The position numbers were made by a program. From Escherichia coli (GTDB taxonomy: Bacteria; Pseudomonadota; Gammaproteobacteria; Enterobacterales; Enterobacteriaceae): a stretch of 64,000 nt of DNA. Below, piece after piece: positions 42,001-48,000 of this stretch (the first letter of the stretch is position 1; every line of letters begins with the position of its first letter). The stretch lies in NCBI RefSeq assembly GCF_009931435.1, contig NZ_CP043414.1; one strand, given 5' to 3'.

Positions 42001-45000
42001 TGCAGATAGGTCGCCTGTCGCTGACACCTGCACTGGGCGTTCTCTATTATGACGAGAATTTCAGTGACTATTACTATGGCATTTCAGAGAGTGAGTCCCG
42101 TCGTAGCGGTCTGGCAAGTTATTCCGCGCAGGATGCCTGGGTGCCCTATGTCAGCCTGACGGCAAAATACCCGATAGGAGAGCACATCGTATTGATGGCG
42201 AGTGCCGGATACAGCGAGCTGCCGGAAGAGATTACCGACAGCCCGATGATTGATCGTAATGAGAGTTTTACCTTTGTCACCGGCGTGAGCTGGCGTTTTT
42301 AATTTACCGGTGGATGTCGGTGCGGCTGGCCTACGCTCTCGCACTGACCTTCAGGCTTGATAAGACGCGTTAAGCGTCGCATCAGGCAATGTGCACCCTA
42401 CGTTGGATGCGGCGCGAGCGCCTTATCCAACCTACGGATGGCAATGCTTTTCCTCATTCACCCAGATCCGCATTTCGCCTTCACCCCGGTTGGCCCAGCT
42501 AAACCACGGGATAAACGTCAGAGTTTGCGGCTGGCGTTTGGCTGGCGCACTATCGTAATGCCACAGCTGTTGCTGCTCTGGATTGCTCTGTTCATACCGG
42601 TAACCCGGTGCCTGGATTAAGATCTTATGGTGGAACAATCCATTACCTTCAAATGTCGTAAATAGCGCATCGGCGGGCAGCCACAGGTTATGCAGTGACT
42701 CGCCGTTGTCGGCCTGTTCCAGGCAATACACCAGCGGGCCGCGCTGAATCGCCACTTTTCCGGCGACGTGACGCACCAGCGGGTTACCGTAAACGCGACG
42801 TACCGGCATTGGCAAAGTCAGATTCAGCGTGTCGCCCTCCTGCCATTCGCGGGTAATGTGCAAATACCCTTTACGAATATCCTGCTCGACCTCTTCCCCA
42901 TTCAATGTAATCTGCGGCTGTGTGCACCAGTCCGGCAGACGTAAAGCCAGCGTATGACGCACCGGCTGGGGCGATTCAACCGCAATTGTCACCTGTTCCT
43001 GCCACGGATAGTTTCCGCTAACCCGCAGACGCAGCGTGCCATTTTCTACCGGCACTTCCATGCTGTTTCCTGCGTAGATGTTGATATACAACGCATCTTC
43101 ACGCGGCGTGTAGAGATAATGACCAATCGAGGTTAGCACACGGGCGATATTTGGCGGACAACAAGCGCAACCAAACCAACGCTGGCGGATCGGCTTAACG
43201 TGATCGTAGATATGGTTGAATTTCAGCGATTTTGGATGTACTTCCAGCGGATTCACATAGAAGAAATGTTTGCCATCCAGCGCCATGCCGCCGAGCACGG
43301 TGTTGTACAGTGCGCGCTCCATCACATCGGCATATTGACTGTCGCCTTCCATTTCCAGCATTCGCCGGGCGAACATCATCAGACCGATGGAAGCACAGCT
43401 TTCGGCGTATACCGTGTCATTCGGCAGATCGTAATCGCTGCTGAACGCTTCGCCGCTGCTTTGTGAGCCAATGCCGCCGGTAATATATAACTGACGCTGG
43501 GCCATATTGTTCCACAGCCGCAGGCAGTCCTGACGCTTGCTTTCATCGTGACTTAAACGCGCGAGATGCGCGACGCCGGTCATCAGGTAGACAAAACGTA
43601 CCGCGTGACCAATGGCGGTTTGCTGCTGTGCGATGGGCAAATGTGCCTGGCTGTAGGCTTTGTCTTTCACCATCCACGCCGGGCCGTAGGTGTGCCAGTG
43701 CGAGGTCTGCCCGCGCTTTTCATATTCCTGGTCGTAATAGTGCGGTTGCGCACCACGCTGTTCGACAAAATAGTGGGTCAGCGCCAGGTAGCGCGGCTCT
43801 TCGGTCACTTCATACAGGCGCATTAGTGCCAGTTCAATTTCCGGGTGACCAGGATAACCGTGTAACTTACTTTCACCTGGACCAAATACGCTGTCGATAT
43901 GATCGGCCAGACGGCAAACCACTTCCAGCAAGCGCCGCTTGCCCGTGGCCTGGAAGAAGGCGACTCCGGCTTCAATCAGATGACCGGCGCAGTAAAGTTC
44001 ATGACACTCCGCCAGATTGCTCCAGCGTTCTTCGGGCGCTTTTACCGTAAAGTAAGTATTGAGATAGCCATCTTCGCACTGGGCGGAAGCGACCAGTTCG
44101 ATTACCTCGTCAGCAGTTTTTTCCAGTTCGGCATCCGGCTTCTGGCACAGCGACCAGGCTACCGCTTCCAGCCATTTGGCGACGTCGCTGTCCTGAAACA
44201 CCATCCCGTAAAATTCACCGTCTTGCAGTCCTGCGGCAATGCGAAAGTTTTCAATCGCATGGCTGGGTTCCGCTTCTGGGATACGATCGTTCAAGGCATC
44301 CCACTGATAAGGAATCACCACGTCGCGGACCAGTTGTTGGTACTGACCGAGGAACGGATCGCTGACCGTCAGTTTATGCAGATCGACTTCCGAAATGTTC
44401 ATCTTGTGCTCCTTAAGGCTGTACATGACGCTGACGCAGGTCGCTAGCAATGCGTGACATCATAGGGTTATTGAGTTTGCAAAAGCGGATCGCCATCGCC
44501 AGCAGCAGGTGGAACAGCGCAGGCAGCAATGTTTCCATCGCCGCGATCCCGCCAAGCGAACTGGCGGTCTGGTTTTCCACGCCTGGCTGGTAGGCGACAA
44601 AAATAAACAGCAGGCTGATGATCCCGGCGCTGGAGGCCCAGGCCAGCTTGATGAAAAACAGATTGAAGGCGAAGTTCATGCCGGAAGAACGTACGCGGGT
44701 TTTCCACTCGCCGTAGTCATCGGCAAAGGCCATCAATGAGAAGTGCAATGGCAATGTGAAGCCAAGAATCACGCCATTACCAAGGATCACCGCCAGCCAC
44801 AGCGTTTGATAAGCCGGGCCAGAAGGCAGGAACCACATCAACACCGCCAGCGCGGCGAGGAGCAGGTTGGTGTAGTAGTAAATTTTGACGGTATCGAAAC
44901 GTCGCGTTAACGGGCTGACAATCACCGAGCCGATAATGGAGGCGAAGGTGACCATAGTGAAGAACAGCGACGTGTAGCCCGTACTGCCTTGTAAGACGTA

Positions 45001-48000
45001 GGTAATGAAGTACATATACCCACCGCCGCGAATATTAAAGACGTTAATCAGCAGGAAAGACATGACCAGCATCAGCAGCAGTTGGTCGTTGTTTCGCAGC
45101 CCGGCAAGATGTTCGCGCAGGGTAAATTTCCCCATTGTGGAGAGTGGCACCCGTTCACGAACCCAGAAGAAACAGCACAGGAACATCACCACAGCGATGG
45201 CGCACAGCACGCCGACGCCCAGTTGATAGCCGCGCGCGGCATTACCCTGACCGAAGAGATCTACCATCCACGGCAGGCCAACCGAAACCAGAAATCCCGC
45301 TACGCCGCAGAGAACGAATCGCCAGGACTGGCAGGAGATCACTTCATTGTGGCGGGTGGTCATGGTGTTGATCAGCGCGCAGTACGGCACGTTGATGGCG
45401 GTATAACCGACTGAAAGGAGCAGGTAAGTGCCGAACGCCCAGGCGATTTTTACTCCCATGCTGGCATCTGGCACGGTGAACGTCAGGATGCCGATAATGC
45501 CGATGGGAATGGCAATCCACAACTGCCACGGACGAAAGCGCCCCCAGCGACTTTGCGTCCGGTCGGCAATGACGCCCATCACCGGGTCGGAGATGGCATC
45601 AAACACGCGCAGTGCAATAAACAGCGTGCCGACCAGCGCCGGAGTTAAGCCAAAAACGTCGGTGTAGAAAAAGGTGAGAAAGTTCATGATCAGGCAAGTT
45701 ATTACGGTGCCGCCTGCGTCACCCAGGCCGTAGCCTATTTTTTCCCGTACAGATAACGCATCGTCAATTTTACCTTTAGCGATATCAGCGGTAGTAATCG
45801 GTGTAGAGGTCATAGATATTCCTCGTGCATAGGGAGCAATTTTTAGTTTTATTGAAATGACATGATTAATTCTGCCGTGAACGGGAATATCAACAAGGCG
45901 AGAAAAGAGTAAAAAAAGGTGACGATTCCGACCTGAATTTAAAAGTGTGAATTGGATCAGGTGAAATTAATGTTTTTGATTAATAATCAAAAGGTAATGT
46001 GTTTAATCATTAATGAATAAGCGGGAAATTACATATCAATGCTCGAATTATCCATGACGTTACCGATTAAAGTGCAAAATGGTGGATTATTTATTTCCCG
46101 TGGCGTAGGGAGGCATCCTGCAAGGCGGCTGGAGTCATGGGAAATTATCTTTGTCGAAAAAGGTCGATTAACGATTCAGGAAGAAGAGCAGATATTTCAG
46201 GTTGATGCGGGAGAGAGTTTATTGCTCTGGCCGAAACGTCAGCACGTTGGTGTTGAGGATTTCCCCGCTGACCTTAAATTTTACTGGCTACATTTTGAGG
46301 TTAAAGCGCCGGACAACGATCCGCGCTGGCTCACTCATCTTAGCGTGCCGCAGCACACCAAAGTCGCCGACCCTCAGGCGTTGAGTGCACTGTTTCGCCA
46401 GTTTTTAAGCGAGCAGGAAAAACATCAGCGTAGCCCTGCGCTGGAGTTTATTGTGTTGTTGATTTTACAGCAGCTTACCTTCGACGTACGTCTTGATGAA
46501 CAAGCCGATACTGCAGGCACCGCCCTTGCCTGGAAAGCACAAAAGCTGATCCGCACGCAATATCATCGCCCGCTTTCTACGGCAATTTTGGCCCGCGAGC
46601 TCTACTGTAATGCCGATTATCTTGGGCGCGTGTATCGTCGGGTATTTCGTTTGACGTTGACAGAAGCTATCCATCGCCAAAGAGTGCGCGAAGCCGAAAA
46701 GCTGTTAATTAGCGAAGCGCGATCGCTCACGGAAGTGGCGGCGTTGTGCGGGTTTAATGACGTTGGCTATTTCCGACAGATTTTTCGCAAACACACCGGT
46801 TTAACGCCAGCTGCGTGGAAGCGACGTTACAGTAAGGAACATATCAATTCGTAGTGCCGGGGCAATGAAGCCCCGGTCTGAGAGATTACTGCCCGTAATA
46901 GGCATTGGCCCCATGCTTACGCAGGTAATGCTTATCCAGAAGTTCGTTTTGCATCGCAGGAAGCTGCGGCGCAAGCTGGCGCGAGAACAGGCCCATATAG
47001 GCGCACTCTTCGAGTACCACGGCATTATGCACCGCATCGGCGGCGTTATTGCCCCAGGCGAACGGACCGTGAGAATGCACCAATACCGCCGGGATTTGTG
47101 CCGGACTCCTGCCGCGTTCTTCGAAAGTTTCAATGATCACTTCGCCGGTCTGATATTCATATTCGCCGTTAATCTCCGCTGCGGTCATCTGTCGCGTGCA
47201 GGGGATTGCGCCATAGAAATAATCGGCGTGCGTAGTGCCCCAGGCAGGGAGATCCAGCCCGGCCTGTGACCAGATGGTGGCGTGGCGCGAGTGGGTATGC
47301 ACAATGCCACCGATTTCGGCATAGCGACGGTAAAGCGCCAGATGCGTTGGCGTATCGGACGAGGGCTTTTTGCTACCTTCCACCACCTTGCCGCTGGCTA
47401 TCTCAACCACCACCATATCGTCGGCGGTCATCACGTCGTACTCGACGCCGGAAGGCTTAATTACCATCCATTGCCGCGTCTCGTCTACCGCACTGACATT
47501 GCCCCAGGTAAACGTCACCAGATGGTGAGCGGGAAGCGCCAGATTTGCCGCCAGTACGTCGGCTTTCAATCGCTCTAACATATAAATCCAGCCTCCTGCA
47601 TACGCGCTTCAATCCAGCGCCGTGCCTGAATAATCTCCAGCACCGGCTCTTTGGCTTTTTCGGTCCACATCTCAATCAGAAATGATCCGCGATAGTTCAG
47701 TTCATGCAGCGTTTTGAAGATGCCAACGAAATCGACGCAGCCTTCGCCAAACGGCACGTCGCGGAACTGTCCGGGGCTTTGCTCGGTGACTGGCTGGGTG
47801 TCTTTCAGGTGGATGGCGGCGATACGGTCAATGCCCAGTTTCAGTTCGGCGGGAACATCATTGCCCCAGGCGCTAAGGTTGCCGACGTCCGGGTAGACGG
47901 TGAACCACGGCGAGGCGAGCATCTCGTCCCACTTTTTCCATTTGCTGATGGAGTTCATAAACGAGGTATCCATAATCTCCACCGCCAGCATTACTTGTGA

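Follow-up and report, generated by a model that had tools for sequence, protein, structure and literature searches.

The E. coli gene pairs melAB, uidAB, yicJI and yagGH each encode a symporter of the GPH family and a cytoplasmic glycosidase. Ara127N, a glycoside hydrolase family 127 (GH127) enzyme of Geobacillus stearothermophilus T6, is encoded in a large L-arabinan utilization cluster with ATP-binding cassette (ABC) transporters and the AraR repressor, rather than in a three-gene GPH/AraC cassette of the kind described here. In Bifidobacterium longum JCM 1217, an extracellular GH121 enzyme frees the disaccharide Araf-beta1,2-Araf (beta-Ara2) from hydroxyproline-rich glycoproteins. The disaccharide enters the cell through an ABC importer, and the intracellular GH127 enzyme HypBA1 then splits it into L-arabinose. 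HypBA1 uses C417 as nucleophile and E322 as acid/base (PMC8106489); three cysteines and one glutamate (E338, C340, C417 and C418) bind its zinc (PMC8106489, PMC10850190); R273, H194, H142 and Y145 bind the substrate, and loop A (residues 35-49) covers the active site (PMC10850190). Here we describe a cassette of three genes, for a GH127 hydrolase, a GPH cation symporter and an AraC/XylS-family regulator, that lies between yiaT and sgbE in a 64,000-nt stretch of Escherichia coli contig NZ_CP043414.1 (assembly GCF_009931435.1), referred to below as the window.

A GH127 hydrolase, a GPH symporter and an AraC-family regulator

We are highly confident that the cassette is a coherent uptake-plus-hydrolysis operon. 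The three genes form one unit: they remain linked in six genera, across at least three distinct neighborhoods, and all three reading frames are intact in the window strain. A preliminary description of the window had seen a self-contained module at this position, and that view gains from the same three genes recurring in five other enterobacterial genera, with or without sgb genes and with a gap of 10-13 nt between transporter and hydrolase. The same description had suggested beta-L-arabinofuranosides as the substrate. Short of proof, this part has been strengthened by 55% identity to the solved structure 4qjy, by conservation of the HypBA1 residues and by transporter relatives linked to pentosidases; on this comparative evidence, the sugar is likely to be a beta-L-arabinofuranoside.

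The hydrolase has the three-domain architecture of GH127, comprising a catalytic (alpha/alpha)6 domain, a middle beta-sandwich and a C-terminal domain. Three Pfam profiles match it, PF07944 at residues 12-427 (7e-112), PF20736 at 438-532 (4e-24) and PF20737 at 534-649 (6e-25), so that the profile assignment proposed earlier as a check upholds the reading of this 656-residue protein as GH127. The cysteine cluster on which that reading had drawn, FGCACCPPN, occupies residues 410-418, and the motifs GCACCPPN, AE[ST]CA and GHAVR are present in all 120 of the 120 closest homologs. The open reading frame was listed from an upstream TTG (42432-44450, minus strand), but its true start codon is the ATG at 44402; the protein is then 656 residues long, and orthologs from six other genera begin at this position. 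A Shine-Dalgarno sequence, AAGGAG, precedes this ATG with a 6-nt spacer and overlaps the TAA stop codon of the transporter gene, which implies that the two genes are co-transcribed.

Nearness to solved GH127 enzymes was judged by relative bit scores against the PDB. The best match is 4qjy (7e-237, 792 bits, 55% identity over 630 aligned residues), a Geobacillus chain that its depositors named a GH127 beta-L-arabinofuranosidase. HypBA1 of B. longum (3wkw) comes second (2e-152, 512 bits), followed by BT3674 (6ex6; 393 bits) and by the aceric acid hydrolase BT1003 (5mqo; 323 bits), the weakest of the GH127 structures. In the alignment with HypBA1, C414 and E318 correspond to the nucleophile C417 and the acid/base E322, and E334, C336, C414 and C415 to the zinc ligands E338, C340, C417 and C418. 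The sugar-binding positions are kept as R269, H186, H134 and Y137, opposite R273, H194, H142 and Y145, respectively. There is no signal peptide, and the N-terminus lacks a hydrophobic stretch, which places the hydrolase in the cytoplasm and matches the intracellular role of HypBA1 as the enzyme that cleaves imported beta-Ara2. We predict that the hydrolase is a beta-L-arabinofuranosidase (EC 3.2.1.185). Its sole NCBIfam match is to the model for BT1003-type aceric acid hydrolase, NF049879, with 457.7 bits against a cut-off of 950; this identity was dropped because the score is less than half of the cut-off.

The transporter, described earlier as MelB-like, co-oriented and 10 nt upstream of the hydrolase gene, is separated from it by exactly that distance and exceeds the cut-off of the GPH model TIGR00792 (333.2 against 231.35 bits), with residues 25-462 covering profile positions 1-437 of 437. 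Its orthologs carry a PF13347 (MFS_2) annotation. It falls under the equivalog cut-offs for MelB (209 against 456 bits), YagG (357 against 610), PRK11462 (325 against 836) and the glucuronide transporter (194 against 528). MelB structures align with it end to end (3e-38); the transporter retains the two Na-site aspartates of MelB, has Ser in place of N58 and has lost the sugar-binding residues K18 and D19. A relative with 62% identity is encoded beside a GH51 alpha-L-arabinofuranosidase, one with 42% identity (Tatumella/Rosenbergiella) is followed by a GH43 gene, and one with 39% identity (Photobacterium) is paired with GH31 beside xylose isomerase; the contexts of relatives in Kushneria and on a 2-kb contig were uninformative. 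The nearest distinct transporter clades, at 62% and 42% identity, lie beside pentosidases, which is independent support for an arabinofuranoside substrate.

The regulator, correctly placed opposite the other two genes from the outset, has an N-terminal cupin-type ligand domain (AraC_binding, residues 26-134, 1.5e-9) and a C-terminal double helix-turn-helix (HTH_18, residues 184-263, 1e-18; HTH_AraC, 5e-8), which is the architecture of the AraC/XylS family. Its best NCBIfam match, AraC (NF007860), reaches 62.7 bits against a cut-off of 208, and the protein is thus not AraC proper. Orthologs in other genera are 63-84% identical. Among solved structures, no relative of the N-terminal domain was detectable; matches were to the DNA-binding domain alone and give no clue to the effector.

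The family matches of all three proteins go far beyond what chance would give, and none of the families is new. In RefSeq, thousands of genomes have the three genes under the names “glycoside hydrolase family 127 protein”, “MFS transporter” and “AraC family transcriptional regulator”, and one pangenome study credits the E. coli GH127 protein with beta-Ara2 hydrolysis by homology (PMC11879602). The cassette is an ordinary accessory catabolic operon of known families that is already annotated.

Predicted regulation and layout

The divergent intergenic region was aligned from seven genera (alignment A1). Mean identity is only 64%, yet the region contains invariant blocks. The elements of a predicted weak sigma-70 promoter for the two-gene operon are invariant or near-invariant in the seven genera, and the blocks next to them are, from their position, a candidate binding site for the AraC-family activator (Table 1). 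A CRP-like site is placed upstream of both predicted start sites, by ~91 bp for the operon and by ~41 bp for the regulator gene; its TCACA and GATC cores are invariant in the seven genera, which suggests catabolite control. All of the promoters and operators proposed for this region are predictions drawn from conservation and position. When the region was searched for repeats, a perfect 9-nt palindrome (45974-45992) and a direct repeat of 23 nt came up; these were rejected as operators because one arm only, AATAATCA, is conserved in other genera. The same search revealed no recognizable direct-repeat half-sites.

At the other end of the operon, a REP/BIME-type element lies directly 3' of the GH127 stop codon and may act as a 3' mRNA stabilizer or terminator; a 37-bp piece of it matches other sites in E. 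coli genomes. The regulator gene and sgbE converge on a hairpin that lies between their stop codons and is a probable bidirectional terminator. The flanking genes are those named in the preliminary description, yiaT and sgbE.

Table 1. Features of the cassette and its borders, in window coordinates.
Feature	Position	Strand	Details and basis
yiaT	41562-42302	+	Flank of cassette; ORF listing
REP/BIME-type element	42354-42432	-	Rfam RF02564 (naRNA4), 67.8 bits against gathering score 59.5
GH127 glycoside hydrolase, 656 aa	42432-44402	-	ORF, Pfam and structure matches
Intercistronic gap, 10 nt	44403-44412	-	GGAGCACAAG; sequence
GPH cation symporter, 466 aa	44413-45813	-	First gene of two-gene operon; TIGR00792
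Divergent regulatory region, 225 bp	45814-46038	.	AT-rich, GC ~0.39; sequence
Predicted weak sigma-70 promoter of the GPH-GH127 operon	45869-45896	-	-35 TTGTTG (45891-45896), -10 CAGAAT (45869-45874), 16-nt spacer
Conserved blocks, candidate activator site	within 45897-45935	-	GGTCGGAAT (45925-45933) and CTTTTTnTACT (45908-45918); invariant A1 columns just upstream of -35
CRP-like site	45946-45961	+	TGTGAATTGGATCAGG, 2 mismatches; pattern match and conservation
Predicted -10 of regulator gene	45982-45987	+	AATAAT, inside invariant block AATAATCA (45982-45989)
AraC/XylS-family regulator, 271 aa	46039-46854	+	Pfam
GC-rich hairpin, probable terminator	46857-46876	.	CCGGGGC-AATGAA-GCCCCGG; between convergent stops
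sgbE (araD-like)	46886-47581	-	NCBIfam L-ribulose-5-P 4-epimerase, 507 bits against cut-off 386

Conservation across genera and loss in E. coli

Orthologs of the hydrolase with 84-88% identity occur across the Enterobacteriaceae, and its 90%-identity cluster holds 13,276 member sequences. In Klebsiella, Kluyvera, Citrobacter, Enterobacter and Kosakonia the arrangement is the same, with the regulator divergent from transporter and hydrolase; the gap between the latter two is 10 nt in all of these except Citrobacter, where it is 13 nt. The cassette adjoins sgbE in Klebsiella michiganensis and Kluyvera, and sgbE adjacency is also seen in Salmonella. In the stretches read from Enterobacter ludwigii and Citrobacter sedlakii, the cassette is found without the sgb operon and with avtA 150 bp to 1.5 kb away, and in Kosakonia it occupies an unrelated locus near pth-ychF. 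Comparison with six genera gave dN/dS values of 0.03-0.07 for the GH127 gene, 0.06-0.11 for the transporter gene and 0.03-0.11 over all three genes, with synonymous sites near saturation; these ratios indicate strong purifying selection on all three genes between genera.

Two observations concern the mobility and the integrity of the unit. In Kosakonia, a short ORF with an integrase arm-binding domain (L007:3968-4084) lies ~1.4 kb from the regulator gene, with two ORFs between, a hint that the three-gene unit may once have been mobile. In Salmonella enterica GCA_010859705.1 (L002:7738-8010), the GPH transporter gene has been precisely deleted: its first 10 nt are joined to its last codons (ATGACCTCTA|TAGCCTTAAGGAGCAC...), leaving a 10-codon mini-ORF that overlaps the start of an intact GH127 gene. 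The hydrolase cluster of this lineage has 577 member sequences; Salmonella houtenae, diarizonae and arizonae retain the transporter.

The full cassette is present in 2313 of 5426 complete E. coli genomes (43%), B strains and O157:H7 among them, always as a single chromosomal copy, and the reading frames are intact in the rows sampled from these carriers. A further 2461 genomes (45%) have the deletion scar of K-12, and ~12% have other cassette-less arrangements. As had been expected, K-12 retains only remnants, both annotated as partial pseudogenes: an internal piece of the GH127 gene, 190 bp long and 87% identical (window 42540-42729), and the 3'-terminal 102 bp of the AraC gene (window 46751 onward). 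The flanking genes of K-12 are 95-98% identical. The names ysaC and ysaD stand between yiaS (sgbE) and yiaT, where the remnants lie, in the published genotype of a K-12 strain that has a reporter inserted there; the scar is already in use as a neutral site for reporter insertion.

The yiaT-sgbE neighborhood is a structural hotspot. E. coli O157:H7 ECP19-198 keeps the cassette and has lost the whole yiaK-sgbE operon, with a remnant of yiaJ (IclR) beside the regulator gene. In the O2:K1:H4 avian pathogenic (APEC) strain E12053, aldB is directly beside sgbE, and yiaW, yiaV, yiaU, yiaT and the cassette are absent. The sgb genes thus occur without the cassette (K-12, APEC), and the cassette without the sgb genes (O157:H7, other genera). 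Hence, its proximity to sgb/yiaK-S is positional, not functional.

Several features of the wider window were also recorded. The nearest complete genome, that of strain 2020CK-00188, is 99.3% identical to the window over 21 kb (20000-41000), which places the window on an E. coli chromosome. From yiaT to lyxK (41500-50600), identity to this strain is just 97.7%, and most E. coli are merely 95-97% identical over the cassette stretch. The drop suggests old allelic divergence or recombination at the locus. Between aldB and yiaW, at ~37895-38510, the annotation of strain 2020CK-00188 indicates a hicA/hicB toxin-antitoxin pair; it is not annotated there in the O157:H7 strain examined, and in Enterobacter ludwigii a hicAB pair directly follows the GH127 gene (L009:8007-8615). 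An Rhs element at ~20500-30400, annotated in the near-identical strain, has an rhsC-type core of ~4.2 kb and, downstream of it, orphan toxin/immunity fragments (polymorphic toxin type 34, Tlde1, Imm57) and an ISAs1 remnant; other E. coli match this stretch in pieces only, at ~96% identity. Positions 18534-18710 hold four perfect or near-perfect CRP palindromes in 177 bp (TGTGATATGAATCACA, CGTGATGTGCATCACA, TGTGAGTAATGTCACA and TGTGATCTGAATCACA) upstream of mtlA (16477-18390, minus strand; NCBIfam PTS mannitol IICBA, 1319 bits), and are a multi-CRP mannitol promoter region.

Function of the cassette and comparison with known systems

What does the cassette do? We consider it probable that it is an operon for uptake and cytoplasmic hydrolysis of small beta-L-arabinofuranosides, feeding araBAD. 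The GPH symporter would import a small glycoside, the lead candidate being a beta-linked L-arabinofuranosyl disaccharide such as Araf-beta1,2-Ara, derived from plant hydroxyproline-rich glycoproteins, arabinans or arabinogalactan proteins and freed by other gut or plant-associated microbes. In the cytoplasm, the GH127 enzyme would cleave it by a retaining mechanism with a cysteine nucleophile, using C414 as nucleophile, E318 as acid/base and a zinc site of three cysteines and one glutamate. The L-arabinose released would enter the resident araBAD pathway, and the divergent AraC-family protein, with its cupin ligand domain, would activate the weak operon promoter when inducer is present. We infer the substrate, the inducer, the coupling ion and the promoter and operator assignments from the comparisons given above. 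That the sugar is beta-1,2-arabinobiose specifically is possible, and on balance doubtful.

Several observations weigh against the proposed role. No extracellular or other glycosidase and no ABC system is encoded among the ORFs from yiaW to lyxK (yiaW/V/U/T, the cassette and the sgb genes), so that substrate supply would depend on other organisms. The literature searched contains no biochemical or genetic characterization of any enterobacterial member, and GH127 also includes aceric acid hydrolase and 3,6-anhydro-D-galactosidase activities. Loop A, long in HypBA1, is shortened in the E. coli enzyme, which has a 12-residue gap opposite HypBA1 39-50; the preference for aglycone or linkage may therefore differ from that of HypBA1. 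There is no such gap relative to Geobacillus 4qjy, and the short loop is common to these two enzymes. A consensus sigma-70 scan of 42250-46950 gave no promoter in the divergent intergenic region. This fits an activator-dependent promoter, and it means that the promoter calls rest on conservation across genera. Across the window, the CRP pattern occurs 28 times where 25.8 are expected and so shows no enrichment, and the proposed site has two mismatches; hence, its support comes from conservation, not from the match. Finally, the cassette is dispensable: it is absent from 57% of complete E. coli genomes, and a Salmonella lineage has dispensed with the transporter.

Some of these points would also fit an uptake and hydrolysis unit with a different GH127 specificity, for aceric acid, 3,6-anhydro-D-galactose, another furanoside or a plant small-molecule glycoside. 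The family is polyspecific, with the aceric acid hydrolase BT1003 (PMC10850190) and Zobellia enzymes that act in carrageenan catabolism (PMC5698469). The only NCBIfam model to match the hydrolase is that for aceric acid hydrolase, its loop A is shorter than that of HypBA1, and the 39%-identity relatives of the transporter are paired with GH31 rather than an arabinosidase. However, the score against this model is 458 bits where 950 are required, no solved GH127 structure is more distant than BT1003 (323 bits), every named sugar-binding position of HypBA1 is kept, and the closest structure was deposited as a beta-L-arabinofuranosidase. We regard a different specificity as quite unlikely. Loss of the cassette raises another question, namely whether it is a dispensable relic on its way out of Escherichia, with no selected function in the window strain. 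The dN/dS values between genera, the conserved regulatory blocks and the intact frames, both in the window and in the rows sampled from the 2313 carriers, speak against this. What relaxed selection looks like at this locus is seen in the K-12 remnant, at 87% identity between flanks at 95-98%. A relic would be consistent with the K-12 scar in 45% of complete E. coli, the other cassette-less arrangements in ~12% and the precise transporter deletion in Salmonella; nonetheless, we think it very unlikely.

Two further proposals concern partners outside the cassette. Adjacency to sgbE in E. coli, Klebsiella, Kluyvera and Salmonella, and the status of SgbE as an AraD paralog, could indicate that the cassette belongs functionally to the yiaK-S/sgb pathway for 2,3-diketo-L-gulonate and L-xylulose, for instance as the source of a pentose that requires SgbE. 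This scarcely credible link is largely refuted by the distributions, since O157:H7, Enterobacter ludwigii, Citrobacter sedlakii and Kosakonia have the cassette without sgb, and K-12 and the O2:K1:H4 APEC strain have the sgb operon without the cassette; moreover, the regulator gene and sgbE are convergent, with a hairpin between them. The GH127 gene might instead be a determinant of epithelial invasion in adherent-invasive E. coli, as it co-segregates with invasiveness in an amikacin assay among isolates from inflammatory bowel disease (IBD) in a pangenome study (PMC11879602). The evidence is only a correlation among isolates from 13 patients in which the gene was not mutated (PMC11879602), and the invasive strain used as positive control, NRG857c, lacks the GH127 gene. 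Phylogenetic confounding is likely because the polymorphism is structured by lineage and 43% of E. coli, laboratory B strains among them, have the gene. A cytoplasmic glycosidase also has no obvious direct role in invasion, and we consider a role as invasion determinant highly improbable.

What would uptake of beta-L-arabinofuranosides mean for the carriers? It is conceivable, if rather unlikely, that they cross-feed on beta-Ara2-type disaccharides through an H+- or Na+-coupled GPH symporter that takes the place of the ABC system of Bifidobacterium. Bifidobacterial or Bacteroides exo-enzymes would release beta-Ara2 from dietary extensins or arabinogalactan proteins, and the division of E. coli into carriers (~43%) and scarred genomes (45%) would reflect a difference in plant-glycan niche that could affect gut colonization, including the association with invasion in IBD. 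L-arabinose from dietary polymers is reported to be important for Salmonella in long-term infection experiments (PMC12361417), and a second route to L-arabinose could thus matter for colonization. If the proposed substrate is correct, beta-L-arabinofuranosides, a defined nutrient derived from plant glycans, would be added to those that E. coli and its relatives use in a strain-dependent way, the symporter would be the first GPH-type transporter for these sugars, and the cassette would be a simple genetic marker that divides E. coli roughly in half.

Among known systems, the enzyme most like the hydrolase is Ara127N (4qjy/4qk0), which aligns with it end to end, is of similar size and shares the CACCPPN and AE[ST]CA motifs, although its host is a Gram-positive thermophile. 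The system of HypBA1 (Bll1HypBA1, BLLJ_0211) provides the functional parallel, in that import comes first and an intracellular GH127 enzyme cleaves afterward. However, similarity to HypBA1 is only ~512 bits and the E. coli enzyme lacks the 12 loop-A residues. B. longum also employs an ABC importer with a binding protein specific for beta-Ara2, and makes its own substrate with extracellular GH121 and GH43 (HypAA) enzymes, whereas in the E. coli cassette a GPH symporter takes the importer's place and extracellular enzymes are absent. Neither GH121, GH43 HypAA nor an ABC importer, the parts of a Bifidobacterium-type utilization cluster, was found among the ORFs from yiaW to lyxK.

In its organization, the cassette resembles melAB, uidAB, yicJI and yagGH, whose transporters belong, by TIGR00792, to the same family as its symporter; it differs in that its glycosidase is from another family and its symporter falls under the specific cut-offs. 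The layout of the promoter region was compared with the spacing at PBAD. The regulator is not AraC (62.7 against 208 bits), the region has no recognizable direct-repeat half-sites, and the sites are predicted. Nonetheless, as at PBAD, a divergently encoded AraC-family regulator with a cupin domain is combined with blocks directly upstream of a weak -35 element and with a CRP-like site ~90 bp upstream of the predicted start.

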